DNA from: an uncultured Alphaproteobacteria bacterium
Lineage (GTDB): Bacteria > Pseudomonadota > Alphaproteobacteria > Rhizobiales > Xanthobacteraceae
NCBI GenBank assembly: GCA_963763485.1
Contig: CAVXOW010000008.1
Coordinates: 121,464-185,463, forward strand
Direction: 5' to 3'
Length of the DNA stretch: 64,000 bases
In this document: one piece after another, positions 9,157-62,825 of the stretch
How the letters are laid out: every line of letters begins with the position of its first letter
Numbering within the stretch: position 1 is the first letter of the stretch
Notes under the pieces: model-generated
Database searches by the model: none
Told to the model about the DNA's origin: nothing
What the model saw: the letters and a program-made list of their open reading frames with translations, nothing else
Made by a program: the position numbers and the translations under genes

Positions 9157-9214
9157 TGAGGGGACCCAGCCTTTGCCCAACAACGTGCATCAGTACACGC
9201 GGCCGTTTTTTCTG

Positions 9215-17226: not shown

Positions 17227-17255
17227 TTGTCACAGACACGCCTGTCACGAAGGGA

Positions 17256-17286
17256 CCTCCGCGGCTTTGTCGCGGAGGTTTTTTCT
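17256..17286 (+). terminator. rho-independent terminator-like hairpin after paralogue 1
   Basis: CCTCCGCG-GCTTTGT-CGCGGAGG followed by TTTTTTCT. Confidence 0.6.
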
Positions 17287-17342
17287 GCGCTGCAAATTCG
17301 CTCGCAGTCACGGTCTTTTTTGGATCGCAGCGTCTCGCCTGC

Positions 17343-17371
17343 TTTACAGCGGACATCGGCGGTAGTTTAGT
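17343..17371 (+). promoter_or_regulatory. candidate sigma-70-type promoter for paralogue 2 (TTTACA-N17-TTTAGT)
   Basis: A CTTTACAG block is conserved upstream of paralogues 2, 4 and 5. It lies 74 nt before the ATG at 17445. Confidence 0.3.
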
Positions 17372-17444
17372 ACGCATCACAATGTAACGCGAAGAGGATT
17401 GCGCAAAATCCCTGCAACCCGCCACGGCCAGAGGGAGATTGCCC

Positions 17445-18680
17445 ATGCAACGCAAGTCCATTTCACCTGCTGCTGCCTTCCTGACGACAGCACTTCTTGG
17501 TGTCGCGCTCGCGACGACAGCCGCGAACGCGCAGAAAAAATACGACACCGGTGCAAGCGATACCGAGATCAAGATCGGCAACCTGATGCCGTATAGCGGG
17601 CCGGCGTCGCCCTACAGCGTGATCGGCAAGTTCGAGGCGGCCTACTTCAACAAAGTCAATTCCGACGGCGGCATCAACGGCCGCAAGATCAACTTCATCA
17701 CCTATGACGACGCCTACTCGCCGCCAAAGTCGGTTGAGCAAGCGCGCAAGCTGGTGGAAGGCGACGAGGTCCTGCTCATCTTCAACTCGCTCGGCACCCC
17801 GCCGAACTCCGCGATCCAGAGCTTCATGAACAAGAAGGGCGTGCCGCAGCTGTTTGTCGCGACCGGCGCAACCAAGTGGGGCGATCCCGAGCACTTCCCG
17901 TGGACGATGGGCTGGCAGCCTTCCTATCAATCCGAAGCGCGCATCTACGCGAAGTATCTCCTGAAGGAACGGCCGGGCGCCAAGATCGCGGTCCTCTACC
18001 AGAATGACGACTACGGCAAGGATTACCTGAAAGGATTGCAGGACGGCCTTGGCGCCAAGGCGGCCTCGATGATCGTTGCCGAGGAGAGCTACGAGGTCTC
18101 CGAACCCACGATCGACTCCCACATCGTCAAGCTCAGGGCGACCGGCGCGGATGTCTTTTTCGATGCCACCGGTGCCAAGTTCGCGGCTCAGTCGATCAAG
18201 AAGATGGCCGAGATCAACTGGAAGCCGCTGCATATTCTGAACAGCGTTTCGACCTCGATCGGCGCCGTGATCAAGCCGGCCGGTCTTGACGCCGCGCAGG
18301 GCATCATTTCGGCGTCCTATGTGATGGACGCGACCGACCCGCAGTGGAAGGACAACCCCGGCATGAAGGAGTGGGTCGCCTTCATGGACAAGTACTATCC
18401 GAGCGGCGACAAGGCCGACTCGTTCAACGTCTATGCCTACAATGTGGCGCGGACGCTGGTGCAGGTGCTGAAGCAGTGCGGCGACAATCTCACTCGCGAG
18501 AATGTCATGAAGCAGGCTGCGAACCTGAAGGAGTTCGAGCCGGGCACGCTATTGCCGGGCATCAAGCTCAATACGTCGCCGACCGACTTCTATCCGATCG
18601 AGCAGCTGCAACTGATGAAATTCCAGGGGGAGACCTGGACGCTGTTCGGCCCCGTGATCAGCGGCGAGATCGGCGGCTGA
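17445..18680 (+). CDS. ABC substrate-binding protein, paralogue 2 of 6
   Basis: The ORF 17439..18680 is trimmed to the ATG at 17445, after GAGGGAG. The signal peptide ends ANA-QKKYDTGASDTEIKIGN. Confidence 0.9.
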   Translation: MQRKSISPAAAFLTTALLGVALATTAANAQKKYDTGASDTEIKIGNLMPYSGPASPYSVIGKFEAAYFNKVNSDGGINGRKINFITYDDAYSPPKSVEQARKLVEGDEVLLIFNSLGTPPNSAIQSFMNKKGVPQLFVATGATKWGDPEHFPWTMGWQPSYQSEARIYAKYLLKERPGAKIAVLYQNDDYGKDYLKGLQDGLGAKAASMIVAEESYEVSEPTIDSHIVKLRATGADVFFDATGAKFAAQSIKKMAEINWKPLHILNSVSTSIGAVIKPAGLDAAQGIISASYVMDATDPQWKDNPGMKEWVAFMDKYYPSGDKADSFNVYAYNVARTLVQVLKQCGDNLTRENVMKQAANLKEFEPGTLLPGIKLNTSPTDFYPIEQLQLMKFQGETWTLFGPVISGEIGG

Positions 18681-18706
18681 CTTTCATAGCCAAACTGTAG
18701 CGATTG

Positions 18707-18740
18707 AAATCTCCGCGATCTCGTCGCGGAGATTTTCTTT
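18707..18740 (+). terminator. rho-independent terminator-like hairpin after paralogue 2
   Basis: AAATCTCCGCGA-TCTCG-TCGCGGAGATTT followed by a T-rich tail. It has the same CTCCGCG..CGCGGAG core as the hairpins after paralogues 1 and 3. Confidence 0.6.
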
Positions 18741-18988
18741 CGCACGTCGGCAGCCAGGAGCCGCTTGGGTCAACCTTGTTGTCTTTACGGCCGGCCGAGC
18801 CGGTAGTTCAGCGCGCGGCACTGGAACGCAGCCCTCTCGCATCGGCGCAGAGCTGTGCCCGGACGTCCTGACGCGCATGTTTCTACTGGTACAGCCGGAG
18901 TCGACGACTCCGGACCATGCGCTCACAACATGAAGAGGTTCGCAAAGAATCCCCTGAAACCCCACAACGGCCACAGGGAGAATTCGGA

Positions 18989-20221
18989 ATGCGCAATGAC
19001 CTTCATCTGCGATCGACGATGCTTTCGGCGGCGCTCCTGGGCATCGCGCTGGTCGCGACACCGGCCAGTGCCCAGAAAAAATACGACACCGGCGCGACCG
19101 ACACCGAAATCAAGATCGGCAACACCATCGCCTACAGCGGACCGGCGTCCAGTTACGGCGTGATCGCCAAGGCGGAAGCCGCTTATTTCAACAAGATCAA
19201 CGCCGAAGGCGGCATCAACGGCCGCAGGATCAACTTCATCTCCTATGACGACGCCTACTCTCCGCCAAAGACGGTGGAGCAGATCCGCAAGCTGGTAGAA
19301 GGCGATGAGGTGCTGTTCACGTTCAACACGCTCGGCACGCCCCCCAACACGGCGATCCAGGGCTACATGAACAAGAAGGGCGTGCCGCAGCTGTTCGTCG
19401 GCACCGGCGCTACCAAGTGGGGCGATCCCGAGCACTTCCCCTGGACCATGGGCTGGCAGCCGACCTACCAGGCCGAAGGGCGTATCTACGCGAAATACAT
19501 CCTGCAGAACGTGCAGAATCCAAAGATCGCAATCATGTACCAGAACGACGACTACGGTAAGGACTACGTCAAGGGCCTCAAGGACGGCCTGGGCGACAAT
19601 GCCAAGTCGTTGATCGTCGCGGAGGAACTCTACGAGACTTCAGAGCCGACCATCGACAGCCACATCGTCAAGCTGCAGGCATCGGGCGCCAACGTGTTCT
19701 TCGATGTCTCCATCGCCAAGTTCTCGGCGCAGGCGATCAAGAAGGTCCACGAGCTCGGCTGGAAGCCGCTGCATATCCTGAATGGTGTCTCGACCTCGAT
19801 CGGCGCGGTGATGAAGCCGGCCGGCCTCGACGCCTCGCAAGGTGTCGTCTCGTCCGCGTATCTGATGGATCCAACCGACCCGCAGTGGAAGGACAACGCA
19901 GGCATGAAGGAGTGGGGCGCCTTCATGGACAAGTGGAATCCCAGCGCCGACAAGACCGACGCTTTCAACGTCTATGGCTACAACCTGGCACGGACGATGG
20001 TGCAGGTCTTGAAGCAATGCGGTGACAACCTGACCCGCGCCAACGTCATGAAGCAGGCGGCGAACTTGAAAAACTTCGATTCGGGGACGCTGCTGCCAGG
20101 CATCAAGGTCAACACCGGCCCGACCGACTTCTATCCGATCGAGCAGGAGCAGTTGATGAAGTTCGAAGGTGAGACCTGGAAGCTGTTCGGACCGGTGCTC
20201 AGCGGCGAAGCCTCCGGCTGA
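18989..20221 (+). CDS. ABC substrate-binding protein, paralogue 3 of 6
   Basis: The ORF 18917..20221 is trimmed to the ATG at 18989, after AGGGAG. The signal peptide ends ASA-QKKYDTGATDTEIKIGN. Confidence 0.9.
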   Translation: MRNDLHLRSTMLSAALLGIALVATPASAQKKYDTGATDTEIKIGNTIAYSGPASSYGVIAKAEAAYFNKINAEGGINGRRINFISYDDAYSPPKTVEQIRKLVEGDEVLFTFNTLGTPPNTAIQGYMNKKGVPQLFVGTGATKWGDPEHFPWTMGWQPTYQAEGRIYAKYILQNVQNPKIAIMYQNDDYGKDYVKGLKDGLGDNAKSLIVAEELYETSEPTIDSHIVKLQASGANVFFDVSIAKFSAQAIKKVHELGWKPLHILNGVSTSIGAVMKPAGLDASQGVVSSAYLMDPTDPQWKDNAGMKEWGAFMDKWNPSADKTDAFNVYGYNLARTMVQVLKQCGDNLTRANVMKQAANLKNFDSGTLLPGIKVNTGPTDFYPIEQEQLMKFEGETWKLFGPVLSGEASG

Positions 20222-20253
20222 TCGCCTCCCGGACATTCCCTGCAGCACTGCAT

Positions 20254-20282
20254 GAACCTCCGCGATGCCCTCGCGGAGGTTC
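20254..20282 (+). terminator. hairpin after paralogue 3 (no clear T-tract)
   Basis: GAACCTCCGCGA-TGCCC-TCGCGGAGGTTC. Confidence 0.4.
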
Positions 20283-20341
20283 ATCCTTGCGCTGCGGCTA
20301 AGGACGACGGCGCTGCAACATTTCGGTCAGCCTTGCTGGCC

Positions 20342-20370
20342 TTTACAGGCGACAAGAACCGGTCATTCAA
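20342..20370 (+). promoter_or_regulatory. candidate promoter for paralogue 4 (TTTACA-N17-ATTCAA)
   Basis: Same CTTTACAG block and the same 74-nt distance to the ATG (20444) as for paralogue 2. Confidence 0.3.
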
Positions 20371-20443
20371 TGCGCGCGCAACAACATCAAGAGGTTCGCG
20401 AAGAATCCCCGACAGTGACCACGGCCACCAAGGGAGCAACGAA

Positions 20444-21673
20444 ATGCGAAGCAAGTTTCAACTGTCTGCGAATGTCCTTGTCACGGCGCTCGGCGTTGCG
20501 CTGCTGGCAAGCCCGGCGAGCGCCCAGAAGAAATACGACACCGGCGCCACCGACACCGAGATCAAGGTCGGCAACACGATGCCCTACAGCGGACCGGCGT
20601 CCGCCTATGGCCCGATCGGCAAGGTCGAAGCCGCCTACTTCAACAAGATCAATGCCGAGGGCGGCATCAACGGCCGCAAGATCAACTTCATCACCTATGA
20701 TGATGCTTACAGCCCGCCAAAGGCGGTCGAGCAGGTGCGCAAGCTGGTCGAGGGCGACGAAGTACTCCTCTTGTTCAACACGCTCGGCACACCCTCCAAC
20801 ACGGCAATCCAGCCCTATTTGAACAAGAAGGCTGTGCCGCAGCTGTTCGTCGCGACCGGCGCCACCAAGTGGGGCGATCCGCAGCACTTCCCGTGGACGA
20901 TGGGCTGGGCCCCGACCTACCAGTCGGAAGCACGCATCTATGCGAAATACCTGCTCGAGAACAAGCCGGATGCCAAGATCGCGATCATGTATCAGAACGA
21001 CGACTACGGCAAAGACTACCTGAAGGGATTCAAAGATGGCCTCGGCGACAAGGCCGCCAAGATGATCATCGCCGAAGAGAGCTATGAAGTTGCAGAACCG
21101 ACTATCGACGGCCACGTCGTCAGGTTGCAGTCATCCGGCGCCAACGTGTTCTTCAACGTCGCGACACCCAAATTTGCAGCGCAGGCGATCAAGAAGGTGG
21201 CCGAGCTCGGCTGGAAGCCGCTGCACATCATGAACAGCGTCGCCGGTTCGATCGGAGGAACCCTACGACCTGCCGGGCTCGACATCAGCAAGGATATCAT
21301 CTCGGCAACCTACGGCATGGACTCGACCGATCCTCAATGGAAGGACAATCCGGCCATGAAGGAATGGGTCGCCTTCATGGACAAGTGGAATCCGAGCGCC
21401 GACAAGACCGACGCCACCAACTCCTATGGCTATAACGTCGCGCGCACGCTGGTGCAGGTGCTCAAGCAATGCGGCGATAATCTCACCCGCGAGAACATCA
21501 TGAAGCAGGCGGCGAACCTGCATGATTTCGAGCCGGGCACGTTGCTGCCGGGTATCAAGATCAACACCTCGCCGACGGACTTCTATCCGATCGAGCAACT
21601 GCAACTGCAGCGGTTCAATGGGCAGACCTGGGAGCGGTTCGGGCCTATCATGAGCGGCGAAATTTCCGGCTGA
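20444..21673 (+). CDS. ABC substrate-binding protein, paralogue 4 of 6
   Basis: The ORF 20252..21673 is trimmed to the ATG at 20444, after AAGGGAG. The signal peptide ends ASA-QKKYDTGATDTEIKVGN. Confidence 0.9.
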   Translation: MRSKFQLSANVLVTALGVALLASPASAQKKYDTGATDTEIKVGNTMPYSGPASAYGPIGKVEAAYFNKINAEGGINGRKINFITYDDAYSPPKAVEQVRKLVEGDEVLLLFNTLGTPSNTAIQPYLNKKAVPQLFVATGATKWGDPQHFPWTMGWAPTYQSEARIYAKYLLENKPDAKIAIMYQNDDYGKDYLKGFKDGLGDKAAKMIIAEESYEVAEPTIDGHVVRLQSSGANVFFNVATPKFAAQAIKKVAELGWKPLHIMNSVAGSIGGTLRPAGLDISKDIISATYGMDSTDPQWKDNPAMKEWVAFMDKWNPSADKTDATNSYGYNVARTLVQVLKQCGDNLTRENIMKQAANLHDFEPGTLLPGIKINTSPTDFYPIEQLQLQRFNGQTWERFGPIMSGEISG

Positions 21674-21706
21674 TTTGCCGGGACGATCAGGACCTCGACG
21701 AACCTT

Positions 21707-21736
21707 ACCGCGGCCTCCGGGCCGCGGGCTTTTTCG
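21707..21736 (+). terminator. rho-independent terminator-like hairpin after paralogue 4
   Basis: ACCGCGGCC-TCCG-GGCCGCGGG followed by CTTTTTC. Confidence 0.55.
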
Positions 21737-21793
21737 GGAGACGCTCGGCTACCTTTCAGGGAATGCCGCGCCCCGACCGGCCTCAAGCCCGGC

Positions 21794-21822
21794 TTTACAG
21801 ACGCTTGCCCTGTGAGTTCTAC
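21794..21822 (+). promoter_or_regulatory. candidate promoter for paralogue 5 (TTTACA-N17-TTCTAC)
   Basis: GGCTTTACAG block 50 nt upstream of the ATG at 21872. Confidence 0.25.
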
Positions 21823-21871
21823 TGCCCTCCGCGAGACGCCGAAGACGGCGGGAAACAGTGGAGGACCAAGT

Positions 21872-23101
21872 ATGACCATCAATTCTCCGGCGCGCGTCGC
21901 GGCTCTGTCCGCGGCGTTGGTGGGGCTGGCGATCGCAGCGGCTCCTGCCAGCGCGCAGAAGAAATATGACACCGGGGCGACCGATACCGAGATCAAGATC
22001 GGCAACATCATGCCGTACTCGGGACCAGCGTCGGCCTACGGTGTGATCGGCAAGACCGAGGCCGCCTACTTCAACAAGATCAACACAGAGGGCGGGATCA
22101 ACGGCCGCAAGATCTTCTTCATCACCTATGACGACTCGTCGAGCCCGCCGAAGACTGTCGAGCAAGCCCGCAAACTCGTCGAGGGCGACGAGGTGTTCCT
22201 GATTTTCAATTCGCTTGGCACCGCCGCCAACTCGGCGATCCAGAAATACATGAACCAGAAAAAAGTGCCGCAACTGTTCGTTGCGACCGGCGCGACCAAG
22301 TGGGGCGATCCGAAGAATTTCCCATGGACCATGGGCTGGCAGCCCAACTACCAGACCGAGGGTCGCATCTACGCAAGATATATCCTCGACACCAAGCCGG
22401 ACGGCAAGATCGCCGTGCTCTACCAGAATGACGACTACGGCAAGGACTTGCTCAAGGGCCTGACGGACGGCCTCGGCGCCAAGGCAAACATGATCGTTGC
22501 AAAGGAGCCGTACGAGCTGACCGATCCGACGATCGACAATCACGTCGTCAGCCTCAAGACGAGTGGCGCCGATATCTACGTCGACATCACCACACCGAAA
22601 TTTGCCGCCCAGAGCCTCCGCAAAGTCAAAGAGCTCGGCTGGACGCCGCTGCATATCCTCAACAATGTCGCGTCCTCGATCGGCGGCGTGATCAAACCTG
22701 CCGGCTACGATACCGCGCAGGGCATCATCTCCGTCACCTACGGCAAGGACGTCACCGATCCGCAATGGAAGGATGATCCGGGCGTCAAGGATTACGACGC
22801 GTTCATTCAGAAGTGGTACCCCGACGCCAACCGCATCGACGGCAGCGTCGGCTACGGCATGATGCTGGCGCAGACGCTGGTGCAGGTGCTCAAGCAGTGC
22901 GGCGACGATCTGACGCGCGAGAACGTCATGAAGCAGGCCGCCAACCTGAAGGACTTCGAGCTCGGCCTCTTGCTGCCGGGTATCAAGATCAACACCTCGC
23001 CGACCGACTTCTATCCGATCGAGCAGGAGCAGCTGCAGAAGTTCCAGGGCGAGACCTGGGTCCGGTTCGGCCAGATCATTGCGGGTGAAGTTCGCGACTA
23101 G
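21872..23101 (+). CDS. ABC substrate-binding protein, paralogue 5 of 6
   Basis: The ORF 21812..23101 is trimmed to the ATG at 21872, after GGAGGA. The signal peptide ends ASA-QKKYDTGATDTEIKIGN. Confidence 0.9.
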   Translation: MTINSPARVAALSAALVGLAIAAAPASAQKKYDTGATDTEIKIGNIMPYSGPASAYGVIGKTEAAYFNKINTEGGINGRKIFFITYDDSSSPPKTVEQARKLVEGDEVFLIFNSLGTAANSAIQKYMNQKKVPQLFVATGATKWGDPKNFPWTMGWQPNYQTEGRIYARYILDTKPDGKIAVLYQNDDYGKDLLKGLTDGLGAKANMIVAKEPYELTDPTIDNHVVSLKTSGADIYVDITTPKFAAQSLRKVKELGWTPLHILNNVASSIGGVIKPAGYDTAQGIISVTYGKDVTDPQWKDDPGVKDYDAFIQKWYPDANRIDGSVGYGMMLAQTLVQVLKQCGDDLTRENVMKQAANLKDFELGLLLPGIKINTSPTDFYPIEQEQLQKFQGETWVRFGQIIAGEVRD

Positions 23102-23104
23102 ATT

Positions 23105-23176
23105 GAGCATGATCTTTTCGGAAAACCGGTATCCACCCCCGATCAAGTCGAGGGCATGCTTTTCTGGATCATGCTC
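23105..23176. repeat. MITE-like 72-bp element with terminal inverted repeats GAGCATGATC..GATCATGCTC
   Basis: The internal sequence TTCGGAAAACCGGTATCCACCCCCGATCAAGTCGAGGGCATGCTTTTCTGG is about 85 percent identical (by eye) to the copy at 27811..27881. Confidence 0.6.
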
Positions 23177-23228
23177 TGGCTTGCCGAAAACTGATTGACG
23201 GAACCCGCAACTGCATTTGGTTCGCAAC

Positions 23229-23265
23229 AAGGCTCTTCGCGCCCGCGCGGGGAGCCTTGTTTATT
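23229..23265 (+). terminator. hairpin AAGGCTC..GAGCCTT followed by GTTTATT
   Basis: Stem-loop AAGGCTCTTCGCGCCCGCGCGGGGAGCCTT with a T-rich tail, between paralogues 5 and 6. Confidence 0.4.
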
Positions 23266-23266
23266 C

Positions 23267-23283
23267 TGCGTCACGCTGACGCA
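23267..23283. promoter_or_regulatory. perfect inverted repeat TGCGTCA-CGC-TGACGCA, candidate operator upstream of paralogue 6
   Basis: A 7-3-7 perfect palindrome 141 nt upstream of the ATG at 23424. It has no counterpart upstream of the other five paralogues. Confidence 0.3.
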
Positions 23284-23423
23284 TTTCATAACACCTGCGT
23301 TTTGCATCAGGGCGCCCTGAAAAAATGACGCTACTGCGCATGCGTTCTGCGGGGCAAAGCAGCGCCAAGGCGTGGTCACGAACGACCAGCCTCAACGATC
23401 ATTTGAAGCGAAGAAGGAAACTC

Positions 23424-24644
23424 ATGGGCTTTCGTCTGAACCTCGTCGGCCTTTCTGCTGCCGCCCTGCTGGCGACCAGCAGCGCTGCGTTGGCGCAAAA
23501 AACCTACGACACCGGTGCAACCGATACCGAGATCAAGATCGGCAACATCATGCCGTATTCCGGCCCAGCGTCCGCCTATGGCGTGATCGGCAAGGCCGAA
23601 GCGGCCTACTTCAACAAGGTCAATGAGGAAGGCGGCATCAACGGCCGCAAGATCAACTTCATCTCCTATGACGACGCCTACTCGCCGCCGAAGGCGGTCG
23701 AGCAGGTGCGCAAGCTGGTCGAAGGCGACGAGGTGCTGCTGGTCTTCAATTCGCTCGGCACGCCGTCCAACACCGCGATCCAGAAATACCTCAACAGCAA
23801 GAAGGTGCCGCAGCTGTTCGTGGCCACCGGCGCCACCAAGTGGGGCGACCCAAAGAACTTCCCATGGACCATGGGCTGGCAGCCGACCTATCAGAGCGAG
23901 TCGCGCATCTATGCGAAGTACCTGTTGCAGAACAAGCCGGACGCCAAGATCGCGGTGATCTACCAGAACGACGACTACGGCAAGGACTACCTCAAGGGCT
24001 TGAAGGACGGGCTCGGGCCGAAGGCCGCGAGCATGATCGTCGCCGAGGAAAGCTACGAGGTCTCGGAGCCGACCATCGACTCCCACATCGTCAAGCTGAA
24101 ATCGAGCAATGCCGACGTCCTGTTCACGTTCGCAACGCCGAAATTCGCCGCGCAGACCATCAAGAAGCTTGGCGAGATCGGCTGGAAGCCGACGCACTTC
24201 CTGAACAACGTTTCGGCCTCGGTCGGCAGCGTGATCAAGCCGGCCGGCATGGACAACGCGCAGGGCATCATCTCCGCATCCTATGGGATGGATCCCACCG
24301 ACGGGCAGTGGAAGGACAATGCCGGCATGAAGGAATGGGTCGCCTTCATGGACAAGTACAACGCAAGCGCCGACAAGACCGACGCCGGCAACCTCTACGG
24401 CTATGCCGTCGCGCGCACCCTGGTTCAGGTGCTGAAGCAGAGTGGCGACAATCTCACCCGCGAGAACGTCATGAAGCAGGCTGCGAGTCTGAAGGATTTT
24501 GAGACTGGCACACTGCTGCCGGGGATCAAGATCAATACCTCGGCGACCGACTTCTACCCGATCGAGCAGCTGAAGTTGCAGCGCTTCAAGGGCGAGACCT
24601 GGGAGCTGTTCGGCGACGTCATGAGCGGCGAGATCAGGGACTGA
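23424..24644 (+). CDS. ABC substrate-binding protein, paralogue 6 of 6
   Basis: The ORF 23325..24644 is trimmed to the ATG at 23424, after GAAGGAAA. The signal peptide ends ALA-QKTYDTGATDTEIKIGN. Confidence 0.9.
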   Translation: MGFRLNLVGLSAAALLATSSAALAQKTYDTGATDTEIKIGNIMPYSGPASAYGVIGKAEAAYFNKVNEEGGINGRKINFISYDDAYSPPKAVEQVRKLVEGDEVLLVFNSLGTPSNTAIQKYLNSKKVPQLFVATGATKWGDPKNFPWTMGWQPTYQSESRIYAKYLLQNKPDAKIAVIYQNDDYGKDYLKGLKDGLGPKAASMIVAEESYEVSEPTIDSHIVKLKSSNADVLFTFATPKFAAQTIKKLGEIGWKPTHFLNNVSASVGSVIKPAGMDNAQGIISASYGMDPTDGQWKDNAGMKEWVAFMDKYNASADKTDAGNLYGYAVARTLVQVLKQSGDNLTRENVMKQAASLKDFETGTLLPGIKINTSATDFYPIEQLKLQRFKGETWELFGDVMSGEIRD

Positions 24645-56093: not shown

Positions 56094-56819
56094 ATGACCC
56101 AAAGCCAGCACATCTTCGTTGTCGACGACGAGGCGCCCGCCCGCGAGATGGTCGGCGATTATCTCAAGATGCACGGCTTTGCGGTGACGCTGTGCGACGG
56201 GGGAAAAAGCCTGCGCAAGGAGATCGAGAAACAGGCGCCGGACCTCGTGGTGCTCGATCTCAACATGCCGGAGGAAGACGGGCTATCGATCATTCGCGAT
56301 CTCAAGTCGCGCATCAATGTGCCTGTGATCATGCTGACAGCAACCGCAAGCCCGATCGACCGCGTCGTCGGCCTCGAACTCGGCGCCGACGACTATCTCG
56401 CCAAACCGTGCGAGCTGCGTGAGCTGATGGCGCGCATTCGCTCGGTGCTGAGGCGCAGCGCACCGGCCAAAGCCGCAGCGCCGGCCGAGGCCAACAAGAA
56501 GGAGATGGTGCGGTTCGGCACCAAGTGGCTGAACCTCGAAGCACAGACGCTCGAAGACGACGAGGGCAACGAGCACCCGCTGACGGCATCTGAATTCGGC
56601 CTGCTCAAGGTGTTCGCAGCGAACCCCAAGAGAGTGTTGTCGCGCGAGCGGCTGCTCGAGCTTGCCAATGCACGAGATAGTGAAGCGTTCGACCGCGCGA
56701 TTGACCTGCGCATCATGCGGATTCGCCGGAAAATCGAGCCTGACCCGTCACGCCCTGCCGTTATTCGCACCATCCGGGGTGGCGGTTACGTGTTTTCGCC
56801 GATCGGGGACAAGGGCTGA
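56094..56819 (+). CDS. OmpR/PhoB family response regulator
   Basis: 241 aa. It has a receiver (HIFVVDDE..DLVVLDLNMPEEDG) and a winged-helix output domain (LTASEFGLLKVFAANPKRVLSRERLL..IRTIRGGGYVF). Confidence 0.9.
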   Translation: MTQSQHIFVVDDEAPAREMVGDYLKMHGFAVTLCDGGKSLRKEIEKQAPDLVVLDLNMPEEDGLSIIRDLKSRINVPVIMLTATASPIDRVVGLELGADDYLAKPCELRELMARIRSVLRRSAPAKAAAPAEANKKEMVRFGTKWLNLEAQTLEDDEGNEHPLTASEFGLLKVFAANPKRVLSRERLLELANARDSEAFDRAIDLRIMRIRRKIEPDPSRPAVIRTIRGGGYVFSPIGDKG

Positions 56820-57053
56820 TCGGCTTGACCCGAATCGGGACCCATTGAAATAATTGAGTTTTTTCTCTTATTGTTTCTTCGCTGCACTTGCGAAAGAAAT
56901 AAATTCCGTCCGCCACGAAACCATTTTCCGCCTCTCACGCAGAGTTCCTGAAACCGGAGCTGGCTACCAATTCGCCCAACGGACGCGCTGTCGCAGCCAA
57001 GTTTACGCAGGCTGCGCCTGCTACGGCGCGGGAAGGAATTGGGAGAAGTCAGC

Positions 57054-57668
57054 ATGCAGACCACCTTCGCAGCCAACCGGGCCTCTGCCAGGAACGGCCT
57101 TATCGCTGCCCAGGCGACGTCGGACGAGATGCTGCTTGAGGGCATCGCCGGCGGCGAAAAGGCCTCGATGCACGTGCTCTATGCCCGTCACAATGTGCGG
57201 GTGTACCGTTTCATTCTGCGGATTGTCAGCGATGCCACGATTGCCGAGGACCTGGTCAGCCAGGTGTTTCTCGACGTCTGGCGCACGGCCGGCCAGTTCG
57301 AGGGCCGCTCGCAGGTTTCGACCTGGCTGTTGGCCATTGCCCGTTTCAAGGCGCTGACCGCGCTGCGTAACCGCAAGCACGAGGACGTCGACCAGGACGA
57401 AGTGCTGGCGATCCCGGATACCGCCGAGAACCCGGAAGCCTGCATGAACCGCAGCCAGACCTCAGAGAGCCTGCGCAGGGCGGTCGAGCAGCTCTCCCCG
57501 GCGCACCGCGAGATCATCGACCTGATCTATTACCACGAGAAGTCGGTAGAAGAGGTCGGCCAGATCATCGGCATTCCGCAGGCAACCGTGAAGACCCGCA
57601 TGTTCTATGCCCGCAAACACCTCGCCCAGCTGTTGAAGCAGGCCGGCATCGACCGCGCCGCAGCCTGA
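57054..57668 (+). CDS. ECF-type RNA polymerase sigma-70 family factor
   Basis: The ORF 57039..57668 is trimmed to the ATG at 57054, after GGGAGA. Region 2 is DLVSQVFLDVWRTAGQFEGRSQVSTWLLAIARFKA and region 4 is SVEEVGQIIGIPQATVKTRMFYARKHL. No recognisable anti-sigma gene is adjacent. Confidence 0.85.
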   Translation: MQTTFAANRASARNGLIAAQATSDEMLLEGIAGGEKASMHVLYARHNVRVYRFILRIVSDATIAEDLVSQVFLDVWRTAGQFEGRSQVSTWLLAIARFKALTALRNRKHEDVDQDEVLAIPDTAENPEACMNRSQTSESLRRAVEQLSPAHREIIDLIYYHEKSVEEVGQIIGIPQATVKTRMFYARKHLAQLLKQAGIDRAAA

Positions 57669-57716
57669 ATTTCCGGCCCCGGATCACCTCGGGGGCTCCC
57701 CTCCCGAAACGCTCCC

Positions 57717-57750
57717 CTGCCCTCGGCTCAAACCGGGGGCAGAACTTTTT
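57717..57750 (+). terminator. terminator-like hairpin after the sigma factor gene
   Basis: CTGCCCTCGG-CTCAAA-CCGGGGGCAG (one mismatch) followed by AACTTTTT. Confidence 0.45.
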
Positions 57751-57874
57751 GGCGGGCCGAAACACAAATCCCGCCCCGACGAAACCAATGAAACAATCGA
57801 CGAAATCATCCTGAAAAAGCCTGGCCCTACGGTCCAATCCAACAAAACGGCGCAAGACTTAAAGGGGACCGTCA

Positions 57875-58069
57875 ATGATCAAGCTTCGCTTCCTGCTCAT
57901 CCCGCTGGGTGCAGTCGCCACGATCGCCGCGCTCGCGACCCAGACCGCTTCCCACGCCACCACCCGCGAGCCGGTCGTTGCCGTGATGACCGAACAGGTC
58001 GTCACCTGCACCGACGAGAACCGCAACACCGTCGACATCTGCATCGTCGCCGACAGCGTTTCGCACTGA
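57875..58069 (+). CDS. small exported peptide with two cysteines
   Basis: 64 aa, RBS AAAGGGGA. The signal peptide MIKLRFLLIPLGAVATIAALATQTASHA precedes a 36-aa mature part containing TCTDENRNTVDIC. A strong terminator follows. Confidence 0.45.
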   Translation: MIKLRFLLIPLGAVATIAALATQTASHATTREPVVAVMTEQVVTCTDENRNTVDICIVADSVSH

Positions 58070-58103
58070 TTTCATTCTCCAAGCCATTTAAACCTCCCCA
58101 CGA

Positions 58104-58141
58104 AGCCCGGCGGATGCCCCCCGCCGGGCTTTTGGTTTTTT
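58104..58141 (+). terminator. rho-independent terminator
   Basis: AGCCCGGCGG-ATGCCCC-CCGCCGGGCT followed by TTTGGTTTTTT. Confidence 0.8.
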
Positions 58142-58323
58142 GGCGAAGTCGAATGCCGCGGCGCGCGCGCATCCTTCCCCGCTCCGCAGGGCAGGATGGC
58201 AAACGGCCTCACGCCGTCGTGACAAGATCTTTCTGAAGGCCCGTAACAGACGGCCGTCTCCGGCGAAGCTTCAGAGGGTGGCAACCGTCGCCTAACGGAC
58301 ACGCTTTCGAGGAGATCCAAACC

Positions 58324-58647
58324 ATGACCAACCGCATTGCGCTCATCCTGTCGGCGGCGACGCTTTCTCTCGGCCTCGCGCTCGCGCCCACCGCGTTCGC
58401 CCAGGACGCCACGAAGAAGGACACCATGTCGAAAGACTCGATGTCCAAGGACTCCATGTCGAAGGACTCGATGAAAAAGGACAGCATGTCCAAGGATTCG
58501 ATGTCGAAGGACAGCATGAAGAAGGATTCGATGTCCAAAGACGCGATGAAGAAGGATGATGGCATGAAGAAAGATGATGCCATGAAAAAGGACGACGGCA
58601 TGAAGAAGGACACGATGTCCAAGGATGCCATGAAGAAGACGAACTGA
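58324..58647 (+). CDS. exported Met-rich pentapeptide-repeat protein (MXKDX repeats)
   Basis: 107 aa. The signal peptide ends TAFA-QD. The mature ~80 aa consist almost entirely of M-(S/K)-K-D-(S/T/A/D) units (KDSMSKDSMSKDSMKKDSM...), with 14 Met. Confidence 0.8.
   Translation: MTNRIALILSAATLSLGLALAPTAFAQDATKKDTMSKDSMSKDSMSKDSMKKDSMSKDSMSKDSMKKDSMSKDAMKKDDGMKKDDAMKKDDGMKKDTMSKDAMKKTN
58411..58638 (+). repeat. in-frame 15-nt tandem repeat (ATG-xxx-AAR-GAY-xxx) with a few 18-nt variants, coding for the MXKDX units
   Basis: About 14 consecutive units can be read directly in the sequence, for example ATGTCGAAAGACTCG ATGTCCAAGGACTCC ATGTCGAAGGACTCG ATGAAAAAGGACAGC. Confidence 0.85.
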
Positions 58648-58735
58648 CCTTTTCGTCGCCCGCGGCAGGCCCGACGGCGACTGCGCCGGGCCTGCGCCAT
58701 CCCGCATAGTGCGGCCCAATTCCAGCAGACGCCAA

Positions 58736-59434
58736 ATGCCTGACCTTCTGCTCGCGCTGCTTGCCGGCGTCGTGACCATTGCTGCGCCCTGTACACTGCC
58801 GGTGCTGCCGATCCTGCTCGGCGCCTCGATCGGTCAACGTGGCCGGGCACGGCCGGCCCTGATTGCGCTGGGCTTTGTGATTTCGTTCGCCTTCGTTGCG
58901 CTGGCGCTGAATGCGATCGCCACCGCCTTCAAGTTCGATCCGGAGGTGTTGCGCACCACGGGGCTCGTCCTGCTCGCGATCTTTGGCGCACTGATGCTGT
59001 TTCCAGCGGCGTTCGAGCGACTGGCGCCGCAGCTCGCAGGCGCCGCCGTGATCGCGTCGCGGCCGGGTTTCGCTGCTCGCCCCAATCTCGGCGGCTTCGT
59101 GCTCGGCACCACGCTGGGCCTGGTCTGGACGCCCTGTGCCGGCCCGGTGCTCGGCGCCATCCTGACCGCGGTCGCGACGTCGCCCGATCACAAGCGCGCC
59201 GCCAGCCTGCTGGTCACCTACGCGATCGGCGCGGCCCTGCCGATGCTGGCAATCGCTTACGGCGGACAGGCGATTTCAACGCAGCTGCGCCGTGTCGCGC
59301 CCTATGCCGCGCGCCTGCAACAGGGCTTTGGCGTGATTGTCATCGCCTTCGTAACCAGCGCTTTCCTGCAATACGACGCCATCGCTCTCGCGTGGCTCGG
59401 CCAGTTCTTCCCCGAAGGCCGCATCGGCCTCTGA
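58736..59434 (+). CDS. cytochrome c biogenesis protein CcdA / DsbD transmembrane-domain family thiol-disulfide transporter
   Basis: The ORF 58709..59434 is trimmed to the ATG at 58736. It is polytopic, with the two conserved Cys contexts AAPCTLPVLP and WTPCAGPVLG. Confidence 0.8.
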   Translation: MPDLLLALLAGVVTIAAPCTLPVLPILLGASIGQRGRARPALIALGFVISFAFVALALNAIATAFKFDPEVLRTTGLVLLAIFGALMLFPAAFERLAPQLAGAAVIASRPGFAARPNLGGFVLGTTLGLVWTPCAGPVLGAILTAVATSPDHKRAASLLVTYAIGAALPMLAIAYGGQAISTQLRRVAPYAARLQQGFGVIVIAFVTSAFLQYDAIALAWLGQFFPEGRIGL

Positions 59435-59449
59435 CGCAAGGAGATCAAG

Positions 59450-60004
59450 ATGATCGGATCACGCAGAACACTTCTCACGACACTCGCCGGGCTTGCCGCT
59501 GTCGCCTTCGCCGCGCCTGTGCTGGCGGGTGATGCCGGCACGCCGGTCCAGCTTGCCGCAGCCAACGCCGCAGCACCCAACTTCGTCGGCATCAGCAAGT
59601 GGTTCAACTCAGGCCCGCTCTCGATCAGCGACCTGCGCGGCAAGGTGGTGCTGGTCGATTTCTGGACCTACGGTTGCTACAACTGCGTCAATACCCTGCC
59701 CTATGTGACGAAGCTCTACGAGACCTACAAGGACAAAGGGTTGGTGGTGGTCGGCATCCACACGCCGGAATTTCCGTTCGAACGCTCGCCGGCCAATGTG
59801 CAGGCGGCGCTGAAGCGGCACGGCATCAGCTATCCGGTCGGCCAGGACAACAACTCCGCCACCTGGGATGCCTGGCGCAACCAGTATTGGCCGGCGCAAT
59901 ACATCGTCGACCAGAACGGCAACATCGTCTTCAGCCACGCCGGCGAAGGCCAGTATGACGAGATCGAGCGCACGGTGCGTCGGCTGCTGAACGCAACAAG
60001 CTGA
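59450..60004 (+). CDS. thioredoxin-like (redoxin/DipZ C-terminal-like) protein with a twin-arginine-type signal
   Basis: 184 aa. The N-terminus MIGSRRTLLTTLAGLAAVAFAAPVLA contains SRRTLL. The CxxC motif is FWTYGCYNC, in a thioredoxin-fold context (VVGIHTPEFPFE, YWPAQYIVD). Confidence 0.8.
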   Translation: MIGSRRTLLTTLAGLAAVAFAAPVLAGDAGTPVQLAAANAAAPNFVGISKWFNSGPLSISDLRGKVVLVDFWTYGCYNCVNTLPYVTKLYETYKDKGLVVVGIHTPEFPFERSPANVQAALKRHGISYPVGQDNNSATWDAWRNQYWPAQYIVDQNGNIVFSHAGEGQYDEIERTVRRLLNATS

Positions 60005-60279: not shown

Positions 60280-61626
60280 ATGTTCGCTGCCATCGACGCT
60301 GTAGCTCTGGCACGCGCGCAGTTCGCGTTCACGATGACGTTTCACATCGTGTTCCCGGCGTTCTCGATCGGGCTCGCAAGCTATCTCGCGGTGCTCGAAG
60401 TGCTGTGGCTGTGGACCGGCCGCGCCGTGTTCCTCGACCTGTTCAAATACTGGCTGAAGATCTTCGCCATTGCGTTCGGCATGGGCGTCGTCTCCGGCAT
60501 CGTGATGTCCTACCAGTTCGGCACCAACTGGTCGGTTTTCTCCGACAAGACCGGTCCGGTGATCGGCCCGTTGATGGCCTATGAGGTGTTGACTGCGTTC
60601 TTCCTCGAGGCCGGATTTCTCGGGGTCATGCTGTTCGGCATGGAGCGGGTCGGCCGCACCTTGCATTTTGTCGCAACACTGATGGTCGCGATCGGCACGC
60701 TGATCTCGGCATTCTGGATTCTCTCGGCGAATTCCTGGATGCAGACGCCGGCGGGCTACACCATCACCGCGGATGGCCAGTTCTATCCCGCCGACTGGCT
60801 CGCCGTGATCTTCAACCCGTCGTTTCCCTATCGCCTCGTGCACATGGTGCTCGCAGCTTACTTGACAACGGCGCTTGTGGTCGGTGCGACCGGCGCGTTT
60901 CATCTGTTGCGCGACTACGCCAACGAAGCCGCCCGCGTGATGTTCTCGATGGCGATGTGGATGGCTGTGCTGGTGGCGCCCATCCAGATCATCGCCGGCG
61001 ACCAGCACGGCCTCAACACGCTCGAACATCAGCCGGTGAAGATCATGGCGATGGAGGGCCATTTCGAAAGCCATCCCGACGGCGCGCCGCTGATCCTGTT
61101 CGGCTGGCCGAACCAGGAGGCCGCGCGCGTCGACTATGCGCTCGAAATCCCGAAGGCCGGCTCGCTGGTGCTGAAGCACTCGCTCGACGCGCCGCTCAAA
61201 GGTCTCGACAGCGTGCCGCGCGAGAACTGGCCCAATGTGCTGCTGCCGTTCTGGGGTTTTCGCATCATGGTCGGAGCCGGGCTGCTGATGCTGCTGCTCG
61301 GCGTTGTCAGCCTGTACCATCGCTGGCACGGCAGCCTTTACGAATCGACGCTGCTGCACTGGTTTGCGCTGCTGATGGGGCCAATGGGATTTGTCGCCGT
61401 CATCGCCGGCTGGTTCGTCACAGAAACCGGGCGGCAACCGTTCACGGTCTACGGCCTGCTGCGTACCGCCGAATCCGCGTCGCCGTTGGCCTTACCTGCC
61501 GTGGCCTCATCGCTTGCTGCGTTCGCGATCGTCTATTTCACGGTGTTCGCGATCGGCGTGTTCTACCTGCTCAAGGCGATGGCGACGCCGCCGCATCGCG
61601 GCGAGGAAGGACCGGACACGGCATGA
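60280..61626 (+). CDS. cydA: cytochrome bd-type ubiquinol oxidase subunit I (short Q-loop / CIO-like length)
   Basis: 448 aa. It begins MFAAIDAVALARAQFAFTMTFHIVFPAFSIGLA and contains the GRQPF motif (TETGRQPFTVYG). Confidence 0.9.
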   Translation: MFAAIDAVALARAQFAFTMTFHIVFPAFSIGLASYLAVLEVLWLWTGRAVFLDLFKYWLKIFAIAFGMGVVSGIVMSYQFGTNWSVFSDKTGPVIGPLMAYEVLTAFFLEAGFLGVMLFGMERVGRTLHFVATLMVAIGTLISAFWILSANSWMQTPAGYTITADGQFYPADWLAVIFNPSFPYRLVHMVLAAYLTTALVVGATGAFHLLRDYANEAARVMFSMAMWMAVLVAPIQIIAGDQHGLNTLEHQPVKIMAMEGHFESHPDGAPLILFGWPNQEAARVDYALEIPKAGSLVLKHSLDAPLKGLDSVPRENWPNVLLPFWGFRIMVGAGLLMLLLGVVSLYHRWHGSLYESTLLHWFALLMGPMGFVAVIAGWFVTETGRQPFTVYGLLRTAESASPLALPAVASSLAAFAIVYFTVFAIGVFYLLKAMATPPHRGEEGPDTA

Positions 61627-61683
61627 ACCGGCGCGCGCGGCCGGCATCACGCCGCTGCCGGGTGTGAGCGGAGGTGGGCACCG

Positions 61684-62688
61684 ATGACGATCGACCTTCC
61701 CACCATCTGGGCTTTCATCATCGCGTTTGCGGTGTTCGCCTATGTCGTGATGGACGGCTTTGATCTCGGCCTCGGTCTGCTGTTTCCGTTTTTTCGCGAC
61801 CACCGCGATCGCGACGTCATCATGAATTCGGTGGCGCCGGTTTGGGATGGCAACGAGACGTGGCTGGTGCTGGGTGGCGGCGGTTTGATGGCGGCGTTTC
61901 CCCTCGCCTATGCCGTGGTGATGCCGGCGCTGTACACGCCTGTCATCGCGATGCTGCTCGGGCTGGTATTTCGCGGGGTCGCCTTCGAGTTTCGCTGGAA
62001 AGCGCGGCGCGAGGGCAACTTCTGGGACATTGCGTTCGCAGCGGGATCGCTGCTGGCATCACTCACGCAAGGCATCGCGCTCGGCGCGATCCTGCAGGGT
62101 GTGAAGGTGTCGGGCCGCGCCTATGCCGGCGGCTGGTGGGACTGGCTCACGCCGTTCACGGTGCTGACCGGCGCCGCCTTGGTCGTCGGTTACGCCCTGC
62201 TGGGCGCGACCTGGCTGATCATGAAGACGTCGGGCGATCTCCGTGAACGCGCCTACGTGTTGAGCTGGCGATTGCTCTTCGCGACGCTGATCGGGCTGGT
62301 CGCGGTGAGCATCGCAACGCCGTTCCTGCACATCGACTACTGGCATCGCTGGTTCACCTGGCCCAGCATTCTCTACGCCGCGCCGGTGCCGATCCTGGTT
62401 GCTGCGATCGCGCTGGCGCTGCTGCGCAGCCTCGAGCGGCGGCAGGATGTTCGCCCGTTCGTCCTGACGCTGGCGCTGTTCGCGCTGACCTATGCCGGCC
62501 TTGGCATCAGCATGTATCCGTTCATCGTGCCGCAGAGCATCACGATCTGGCAGGCGGCGGCGCCGGCCAAGAGCCAGCTGTTCATGCTGGTCGGCGTGGT
62601 GATCCTGATCCCGATGATCCTCGCCTATACCGCGTTCGCCTACTGGGTGTTCCGCGGCAAGGTCGACCCGCAAGCCGGATATCACTGA
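61684..62688 (+). CDS. cydB: cytochrome bd-type ubiquinol oxidase subunit II
   Basis: 334 aa, polytopic. It contains WAFIIAFAVFAYVVMDGFDLGLG and VWDGNETWLV. Confidence 0.9.
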   Translation: MTIDLPTIWAFIIAFAVFAYVVMDGFDLGLGLLFPFFRDHRDRDVIMNSVAPVWDGNETWLVLGGGGLMAAFPLAYAVVMPALYTPVIAMLLGLVFRGVAFEFRWKARREGNFWDIAFAAGSLLASLTQGIALGAILQGVKVSGRAYAGGWWDWLTPFTVLTGAALVVGYALLGATWLIMKTSGDLRERAYVLSWRLLFATLIGLVAVSIATPFLHIDYWHRWFTWPSILYAAPVPILVAAIALALLRSLERRQDVRPFVLTLALFALTYAGLGISMYPFIVPQSITIWQAAAPAKSQLFMLVGVVILIPMILAYTAFAYWVFRGKVDPQAGYH

Positions 62689-62825
62689 TGGCGGCAGGCA
62701 ACACGCGCAACAGGCTAGAGCCGCCACTGCTGCGGCGGCTCGCATGGTTCGTGCTGCTGTGGCTCGGCGGCGTCGCCAGCGTTGCCGTTGTCAGCGTGGT
62801 GCTGCGGTACTGGCTGCATCCGTAG
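62688..62825 (+). CDS. small membrane protein downstream of cydB (DUF2474-like)
   Basis: 45 aa, MAAGNTRNRLEPPLLRRLAWFVLLWLGGVASVAVVSVVLRYWLHP. Its ATG overlaps the cydB stop (TGATG). It has a single TM helix. It is absent from the ORF track because it is under 60 aa. Family assignment is from memory. Confidence 0.5.
   Translation: MAAGNTRNRLEPPLLRRLAWFVLLWLGGVASVAVVSVVLRYWLHP

Follow-up and report, generated by a model that had tools for sequence, protein, structure and literature searches.

We analysed a 64,000-nucleotide stretch of DNA (hereafter the window; contig CAVXOW010000008.1) from an uncultured alphaproteobacterium of the Xanthobacteraceae, in which the genes of an extracytoplasmic function (ECF) sigma factor, a 64-amino-acid (aa) exported peptide (P64), a methionine-rich MXKDX pentapeptide-repeat protein, a CcdA-type membrane protein and a thioredoxin-fold protein (trx) follow one another ahead of the cytochrome bd-type oxidase genes cydAB. 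A first-pass annotation made from the sequence alone had named these five genes, all of which we found on the + strand, and had proposed a hierarchy running from a two-component system to the adjacent ECF sigma factor and from there to the other genes. We consider it probable instead, though well short of certain, that the genes fall into two adjoining but independent units, that MXKDX-ccdA-trx is controlled by an ECF16-type sigma factor, that the adjacent EcfQ-type sigma factor belongs to the other unit, and that the MXKDX protein is a methionine sink recycled through CcdA, the thioredoxin and a methionine sulfoxide reductase (Msr). The hierarchy is probably wrong at its second step, from the sigma factor to the genes, because the promoter of these genes is of the ECF16 type, the adjacent sigma factor is of the EcfQ type, and the ccdA-trx genes of Bradyrhizobium japonicum depend on EcfF/OsrA.

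The promoter of the MXKDX-ccdA-trx genes

The motif GTAAC-N16-CGAA lies 57 nucleotides (nt) upstream of the MXKDX start codon and is of the type (T/C)GTAAC-N17-CGAA, the ECF16 consensus published for the control of MrpX and BcrX (PMC4436054, PMC8315932). The first-pass annotation had recommended a promoter search upstream of positions 57875, 58324, 58736 and 60280; this succeeded before 58324 (MXKDX) and yielded no GTAAC..CGAA before ccdA or cydA, and P64 is preceded by GAAAC boxes. All five loci with an MXKDX gene downstream of the sigma gene (5/5) keep the motif amid diverged flanks, and it also stands ahead of ccdA-trx in loci without MXKDX. Across 81 loci, GTAAC-N16/17-CGAA occurred at 16 sites, in exactly the 15 loci with MXKDX, ccdA or trx (including one truncated locus), and never between the sigma gene and cydA in loci lacking all three. 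The wider pattern GTAAC-N15-18-CG(A/T) preceded 71 of the 76 metagenomic MXKDX genes with enough upstream sequence, compared with 24 of 3142 control windows of 200 nt (0.76%). One locus, L089, carries ccdA-trx with both this promoter and the inverted repeat described below, and has neither the sigma gene nor cydAB. These comparisons showed that the GTAAC promoter travels with MXKDX/ccdA-trx, independently of ecfQ.

Locus L148, which carries a sigma gene, an NrsF gene, MXKDX, cytochrome b and MsrP, served as an internal positive control for an ECF16 sigma factor with NrsF; there the GTAAC motif precedes both the sigma gene and MXKDX. The sigma factor of L162 was rejected as an ECF16 reference, being of the RpoE/ChrR type and paired with a zf-HC2 plus cupin anti-sigma factor, and L148 was taken in its place.

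A precedent exists in B. japonicum USDA110, where the gene order is bll1029 (response regulator), bll1028 (ecfQ), bll1027 (CcdA-like) and bll1026 (periplasmic thioredoxin) (PMC3420878). The pair bll1027-26 has an EcfF-type promoter, GTAAC(g,a)-N14-15-(c,t)CG(t,a), and within the EcfF/OsrA (ECF16) regulon it shows the strongest effects, with changes of -15/-20-fold in an ecfF-osrA mutant and about +90-fold in an osrA mutant; three methionine sulfoxide reductase genes belong to the same regulon, and Bll1027/Bll1026 were speculated to feed electrons to one periplasmic methionine sulfoxide reductase, Blr7043 (PMC3420878). For the window, we infer that MXKDX-ccdA-trx is driven by an ECF16/NrsF pair whose genes lie in another part of the genome.

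Upstream of the -35 element lies an inverted repeat, TCAC-N6-GTGA. In 80 metagenome loci, all 18 occurrences of this repeat followed by 18-22 nt and GTAAC were upstream of MXKDX, four of the 18 loci being too short to show ccdA. Ahead of MXKDX the repeat stands about 20 nt from the -35 element, and in loci whose promoter leads straight into ccdA the spacing is 10-12 nt; in L089 the repeat is at about 9165-9180. None of the examined promoters of stand-alone or MsrP-linked MXKDX genes has it, and most of them have an A/T-rich tract there. This distribution suggests that the repeat is confined to ccdA-trx and MXKDX-ccdA-trx operons, as a candidate operator for a second regulator. We know of no protein that binds it.

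The MXKDX protein as a predicted methionine sink

The MXKDX protein matched TIGR02953 with 107.2 bits (cutoff 41, E = 3e-31), and an exact look-up of its sequence returned no record. Its N-terminus, MTNRIALILSAATLSLGLALAPTAFA followed by QD, is a putative signal peptide ahead of the methionine-rich array, assigned by eye and from the homologue alignment. The mature protein is 81 aa long, with 23 lysines, 18 aspartates, 13 M.KD units and no histidine in the repeats; its 14 methionines agree with the earlier count.

Functional annotation of this family had been thought to be lacking, yet its members are published as hypochlorite sinks (PMC4436054, PMC8315932). MrpX of Azospira suillum is a periplasmic methionine-rich protein that is induced by the ECF sigma factor SigF (anti-sigma NrsF), is oxidised by hypochlorite, and is proposed to be regenerated by YedY (PMC4436054). 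BcrX of Brucella melitensis, described as an MXKDX repeat protein, is encoded by the first gene of bcrXQP, which the ECF16 sigma factor BcrS drives via TGTAAC-N17-CGAA promoters (PMC8315932). The role as a sink is experimental for MrpX (PMC4436054) and proposed for BcrX (PMC8315932). By homology and from this literature, the window protein is predicted to be an exported methionine sink, and the suggestion that it serves oxidant defence is supported by its membership of the MrpX/BcrX family of hypochlorous acid (HOCl) sinks.

The array (58416-58610) is made of 15/30/45-nt and 18-nt tandem DNA repeats, and the number of M.KD units is 13 in the window compared with 8 in each of L001, L002, L003 and L064. 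Because it is built from tandem repeats and its unit number varies, the array probably expands and contracts through slippage or recombination.

CcdA and the thioredoxin-fold protein

CcdA scored 50 bits against DsbD_TM (PF02683; cutoff 27.1) and has both transmembrane cysteines, Cys19 (APCTLP) and Cys134 (WTPCAGP). The thioredoxin-fold protein has the active-site motif WTYGCYNC, and its closest solved structure is that of Mycobacterium tuberculosis DipZ (Rv2874; PDB 2hyx, 5cyy; E = 1.5e-46, query residues 33-182). The Etrx structures matched it weakly (E about 1e-7), and a homologue search reached close metagenomic relatives only, the USDA110 protein Bll1026 not being among them. The ccdA and trx pair looks like a split DipZ, since DipZ is a CcdA-like membrane domain fused to a thioredoxin domain. 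To our knowledge, the physiological substrate of DipZ has not been established. A twin-arginine signal had been read into the N-terminus of the thioredoxin; the sequence SRRTLL is confined to the window and the 98%-identical L001, and we rejected twin-arginine-dependent export as a family feature because the 12 other aligned homologues have no twin arginine.

The annotated parallel between CcdA plus an exported thioredoxin and the supply lines of Msr enzymes is well founded, for the CcdA-Etrx-MsrAB2 pathway of Streptococcus pneumoniae (PMC3914529) and the CcdA-Trx-Msr pathway of the trx-ccdA-msrAB locus of Fusobacterium nucleatum (PMC9239216) are both experimentally documented.

The MXKDX-ccdA-trx arrangement and its recurrence

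In the window and its closest relatives, L001, L002 and L088, the MXKDX gene is placed between the ECF16-type promoter and ccdA. Since there is no second GTAAC..CGAA promoter before ccdA and a weak hairpin alone separates the two genes, MXKDX looks like the first gene of a ccdA-trx operon. The first-pass annotation had each transcription unit here end in a hairpin, which holds for the terminators behind the sigma gene (57717-57742) and P64 (58102-58132) but not for the hairpin behind MXKDX: the latter lacks a U tail, and shuffled sequence folds about as well (z = -0.33), so that we rejected it as a terminator and regard it as at most a weak terminator or attenuator.

With the MXKDX protein as query we gathered 80 metagenomic MXKDX loci, in which three contexts recurred. 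In about 45 of the 80 the gene is on its own, flanked by dctP and a DUF6481 gene, its usual position in Bradyrhizobium; in about 20 it is followed 270-750 nt downstream by ccdA (and by trx where the contig reaches that far); and in about 10 it lies beside MsrP, with or without cytochrome b. At least eight of the roughly 20 MXKDX-ccdA loci lack ecfQ in a left flank of 0.9-6 kb. MXKDX-ccdA-trx thus appears to be a recurrent three-gene operon found mostly away from ecfQ, which seems to be new; we found no published description of this operon or of the TCAC-N6-GTGA repeat in the literature searched. The idea that MXKDX genes are preferentially linked to thiol-redox genes therefore survived the comparison, given the ccdA(-trx) genes directly downstream in about 20 of the 80 loci. 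The methionine sink of soil Nitrobacteraceae would, on this evidence, often be wired to a thiol-based CcdA/DipZ-like line instead of MsrPQ.

Two loci combine several of these elements. L159 (1-2466) has cytochrome b, MsrP and MXKDX and then CcdA and Trx matches, so that molybdoenzyme and thiol routes surround one sink gene; a long open reading frame (ORF) in this locus, considered as a CcdA-Trx fusion, had no Pfam match and is probably a frame artefact of ORF calling. L163 has a kinase/regulator, cytb, MsrP, MXKDX and MsrB (SelR).

The stand-alone Bradyrhizobium MXKDX genes have a GTAACA-N15-CCGT promoter. In the dctP-MXKDX intergenic region (L081, about 7800-7830; L084) we noted the sequence TGCTGCGC(C/G)GCA, which resembles the PhaR box reported for bll4430/bsr4431 of USDA110 (PMC6201568). 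Owing to this resemblance bsr4431, a small EcfF-dependent gene (PMC3420878), is probably the MXKDX gene of USDA110, a candidate identity suggested by the intergenic sequence.

The adjacent sigma factor and its own block

By its promoter architecture and gene order, the adjacent sigma factor is assigned to the EcfQ type; its sole profile assignment is NCBIfam PRK12515. The published ecfQ promoter comprises GCAGAC-N20-TAACAAT, GAAAC boxes and TGTTTC-N17-GAAACA (PMC3420878). Ahead of the window gene we found GAAAC boxes at 56917-56921 and 56950-56954, GCAGAG at 56939-56944 followed after N20 by TACCAAT at 56965-56971, and a degenerate TGTTTC...GAAA inverted repeat, and the full pattern is kept in most of about 80 related loci. 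The direct GAAAC repeats of ecfQ promoters lie roughly 20-35 nt apart. EcfQ (bll1028) and its relatives in Nitrobacter, Rhodopseudomonas and Bradyrhizobium BTAi1 belong to the ECF33 class and have no anti-sigma gene (PMC3420878). The window sigma factor had likewise been described as lacking an anti-sigma partner, and Pfam detected an anti-sigma domain nowhere in the window.

We also considered this sigma factor as a member of ECF16 and rejected the assignment: the next gene downstream is not NrsF/DUF1109 but P64, behind a terminator, with no NrsF gene elsewhere in the 64 kb; there is no GTAAC..CGAA upstream of the sigma gene (57054); and the protein shares 25% identity over 107 aa with the NrsF-paired ECF16 sigma factor of L148. 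It is probably not the regulator of MXKDX-ccdA-trx.

We compared 80 loci around homologues of the sigma factor, counting each neighbour among 75 (for the kinase, among the 65 with enough flank). A response regulator lies upstream in 70/75 and a histidine kinase in 62/65, and cydA follows within 4 kb in 57/75; P64 is a neighbour in 24/75, ccdA or trx in 11/75 and MXKDX in 4/75. Because kinase/regulator synteny is conserved and the GAAAC repeats are of the activator type, a step from the regulator to ecfQ is plausible, with the OmpR-type regulator as a plausible candidate activator at the GAAAC boxes. In B. japonicum, ecfQ is thought to be controlled by a transcription factor left unidentified in 2012 (PMC3420878), for which the synteny and the boxes now nominate a candidate. 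The window kinase is unusually large (1259 aa), and the equivalent region of L088 is called as two genes.

The position of cydA downstream of the sigma gene in so many loci suggests that the EcfQ block is functionally linked to the bd-type oxidase. A search for dyads and enriched k-mers upstream of cydA found the terminator hairpin only and no ECF-type motif, nor did the upstream regions of the sigma gene, P64 and cydA have any ECF-type motif in common. The cydA product is short (448 aa), and cydB and a 45-aa DUF2474 gene follow.

The first-pass annotation's exported peptide with two cysteines proved to be a genuine gene, for the signal peptide and both cysteines of P64 are conserved in 26 aligned homologues; it had no Pfam or NCBIfam match. 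P64 travels with ecfQ, not with MXKDX. In many related loci, L016-L031 included, a GAAAC-box block like GACGAAACCAATGAAACAATCGACGAAATCATCCTGAAAAAG follows the sigma gene, and behind it comes either the P64 ORF or, in photosynthetic Bradyrhizobium, about 130 nt with CCUCC motifs and no detected P64 homologue. This unit (57778-58140 in the window) ends in a terminator in most loci examined, with a conserved loop, GGAUGCCCC, and a varying stem. It could be a small RNA or a dual-function small-protein mRNA; an Rfam search of the region and five related loci found no family for the hairpin unit, the only hit being a sub-threshold rnk leader (26.5 bits, gathering score 55).

Two probable units, and the alternatives to them

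In the explanation we favour, the first unit would be a conserved Nitrobacteraceae block of kinase, response regulator, EcfQ-type sigma factor, P64 and cydAB, the sigma gene being switched on transcriptionally via its GAAAC boxes, presumably by the adjacent OmpR-type regulator. The second unit, MXKDX-ccdA-trx, would have been inserted between ecfQ and cydAB and would be transcribed from GTAAC-N16-CGAA by an ECF16 sigma factor (SigF/EcfF) that its NrsF/OsrA anti-sigma factor, likewise encoded elsewhere, would hold until reactive oxygen or chlorine species release it. A second regulator would act at the TCAC-N6-GTGA repeat. The exported MXKDX protein would be sacrificially oxidised by HOCl or peroxide. 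Judging from the protein families, cytoplasmic thioredoxin would supply thiol electrons, which CcdA would pass through the membrane to the DipZ-like thioredoxin in the periplasm. The latter, after the proposal made for Bll1027/Bll1026 and Blr7043, may keep a periplasmic MsrA/B-type reductase of the same regulon, encoded outside the window, in its reduced state, and this reductase would recycle the sink and other envelope proteins. We propose more tentatively, as a possibility only, that MXKDX, CcdA and the DipZ-like thioredoxin form a distinct mobile module, in which a methionine (and lysine)-rich hypochlorite sink is recycled by thiol electrons via periplasmic MsrA/B and gated by ECF16 and a second regulator.

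Several points weigh against the two-unit explanation. The promoter spacer in the window is N16 and not the usual N17, and CGAA is preceded by G, at a position occupied by C or T in the B. japonicum consensus (PMC3420878). In L064, MXKDX and ccdA-trx have separate promoters, and co-transcription in the window is deduced from the lack of a second promoter and the weakness of the hairpin. The ECF16/NrsF pair and the Msr are postulated to lie elsewhere, since a Pfam scan of the called ORFs found no Msr, NrsF or second ECF sigma gene in the 64 kb, which for Msr agrees with the first-pass annotation. Reduction of Msr by the DipZ-like thioredoxin is a predicted step, and the equivalence to bll1028-1026 is drawn from gene order and promoter architecture. 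The sample of 80 MXKDX loci is also biased toward relatives of the query.

In the main rival account, the genes are co-regulated and not coupled. The sink would be recycled by quinone-driven MsrPQ encoded elsewhere, or not at all, and CcdA and the DipZ-like thioredoxin would repair sulfenic acids or wrong disulfides on periplasmic cysteines, as DsbD-DsbG/DsbC do, giving two envelope defences under one stress promoter. No msr gene (PMSR, SelR or MsrP) was present in the window or in L111 and L138, the two MXKDX-ccdA-trx loci examined closely; in about 10 other loci, as in the published systems (PMC4436054, PMC8315932), MXKDX has MsrP and a cytochrome b as linked neighbours; L159 shows that MsrP can coexist with the thiol pair; and DipZ, the closest solved homologue, is not among the Msr-reducing thioredoxin-fold proteins. 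We nevertheless regard this account as rather unlikely, in view of the experimental demonstration that CcdA-Trx pairs next to Msr genes feed Msr (PMC3914529, PMC9239216) and the presence of three B. japonicum methionine sulfoxide reductase genes in one regulon with bll1027-26 (PMC3420878). MXKDX is, moreover, repeatedly the first gene of this operon, and therefore more than shared timing seems to be involved.

Direct transcription of P64, MXKDX, ccdA-trx and cydAB by the adjacent sigma factor, itself under the two-component system, was the hierarchy originally proposed. The adjacency of the genes, the activator-type boxes at the sigma gene with its conserved kinase and regulator neighbours, and the 35-fold induction of B. 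japonicum ecfQ by H2O2 (PMC3420878) all speak for it, and the promoter specificity of EcfQ is not known. We consider it improbable all the same, given that GTAAC..CGAA is found only where the cassette is present, stays with the cassette in contexts without ecfQ, corresponds to the ECF16 consensus, and precedes the NrsF-paired sigma gene in L148. Furthermore, bll1027-26 are missing from the ecfQ-mutant tables (PMC3420878), and the sigma gene and P64 share GAAAC boxes instead of an ECF-type motif common to them and cydA.

Methionine-rich periplasmic proteins can bind Cu(I), and with 14 methionines in 81 residues the MXKDX protein might act as a periplasmic Cu(I)/Ag(I) thioether buffer whose accompanying thiol system repairs metal damage, the other function suggested at the outset. 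This we consider very improbable. Genes of the cop, cus, pco or sil type or other metal genes are absent from the window (Pfam) and from the recurrent MXKDX contexts, the repeats lack histidine, the promoter found throughout the family is of a kind read by sigma factors responsive to reactive oxygen and chlorine species, and the homologue MrpX was shown to be oxidised by hypochlorite (PMC4436054).

If the more tentative reading as a distinct mobile module is correct, MrpX-type sinks could be regenerated by a second route that needs neither quinones nor molybdenum, and DipZ-type proteins would gain a physiological role. The analysis lends genomic support to the 2012 speculation on Bll1027/Bll1026 and suggests a physiological role for DipZ-like proteins. 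It also connects a small repeat protein that had no annotation with a published mechanism of hypochlorite scavenging, and corrects the tempting, probably wrong, inference that the adjacent sigma factor controls its neighbours.

Features of the window

The features discussed here are collected in Table 1. At some distance from them, at 15991-24644, six tandem ORFs of similar size lie behind an ABC transporter operon; both of those scanned encode Peripla_BP_6 (branched-chain amino-acid-type) solute-binding proteins.

Table 1. Genes and sequence elements of the window, with positions counted from its first nucleotide
Feature	Position	Strand	Basis or remark
Histidine kinase, 1259 aa	52279-56058	+	HAMP, DUF3369, HisKA, two HATPase_c stretches (Pfam)
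OmpR-type response regulator	56094-56819	+	Response_reg and Trans_reg_C; position equivalent to Bll1029
ecfQ-type promoter region	56872-56971	+	Matches published ecfQ promoter features
EcfQ-type ECF sigma factor	57054-57668	+	Sigma70_r2 and r4_2 (Pfam); NCBIfam PRK12515, 328 bits
Intrinsic terminator of sigma gene	57717-57742	+	Fold z = -2.1
Second GAAAC-box promoter-like block, GACGAAACCAATGAAACAATCGACGAAATCATCCTGAAAAAG	57778-57819	+	Upstream of 64-aa gene
P64, small exported protein, 64 aa	57875-58069	+	26 aligned homologues
Terminator hairpin, conserved loop GGATGCCCC, CCUCC motif ahead	58102-58132	+	Fold z = -3.0
Inverted repeat TCACGCCGTCGTGA (TCAC-N6-GTGA), candidate operator	58209-58222	+	20 nt upstream of -35 element
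ECF16 (SigF/EcfF/BcrS)-type promoter GTAAC-N16-CGAA	58243-58267	+	Motif scan and published consensus
MXKDX pentapeptide-repeat protein, MrpX/BcrX family	58324-58647	+	TIGR02953, 107 bits
GC-rich hairpin without U tail, between MXKDX and ccdA	~58662-58697	+	Fold z = -0.33
CcdA, DsbD-beta-type membrane thiol-electron conduit	58736-59434	+	DsbD_TM; position equivalent to Bll1027
Exported DipZ/TlpA-like thioredoxin-fold protein, motif CYNC	59450-60004	+	Redoxin, AhpC-TSA, Thioredoxin_8; position equivalent to Bll1026
cydA, cydB, DUF2474 gene (cytochrome bd-type oxidase)	60280-62825	+	Pfam

Comparison with known systems

The window shares with the SigF/NrsF-MrpX-YedYZ system of A. suillum PS and the BcrS/AbcS-BcrXQP system of B. 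melitensis an exported methionine-rich MXKDX protein, a GTAAC-N16/17-CGAA promoter of the ECF16 type ahead of its gene, and the predicted role of a periplasmic sacrificial sink for hypochlorite and other reactive oxygen species. Unlike these systems, it has no adjoining sigF-nrsF pair and no msrPQ (yedYZ): Pfam matches to Oxidored_molyb or Ferric_reduct were absent from the window, and the genes downstream of MXKDX are ccdA and trx. The partners are thus CcdA and a DipZ-like thioredoxin, which would draw on thiol electrons from cytoplasmic thioredoxin, and not a quinone-driven molybdoenzyme. The TCAC-N6-GTGA repeat upstream of the promoter is a further addition.

With the S. pneumoniae and F. 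nucleatum systems, which are induced by oxidants, the window has in common the CcdA conduit and an extracytoplasmic thioredoxin-fold protein; their operons include Msr and no methionine sink, whereas the window operon includes a sink and no Msr. M. tuberculosis DipZ is the closest solved relative of the window thioredoxin and shares its WxYxCxNC motif, but in the window the corresponding parts are separate genes, and DipZ has an additional C-terminal domain with no counterpart there.

The bll1029-1026 locus of USDA110 has the same order of regulator, sigma factor without an anti-sigma gene, CcdA-like protein and periplasmic thioredoxin, the same ecfQ promoter features (GCAGAC-N20-TAACAAT there, GCAGAG-N20-TACCAAT here) and an EcfF-type promoter serving ccdA-trx. 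The window differs in having the MXKDX gene inserted between the EcfF-type promoter and ccdA, a gene that in typical Bradyrhizobium is found by itself, with dctP on one side and a DUF6481 gene on the other, and its block also includes P64 and cydAB. The EcfQ block and the ECF16 methionine-sink system were thus known before; what appears to be new is a sink joined to a CcdA/DipZ-like thiol line with a candidate operator of its own.

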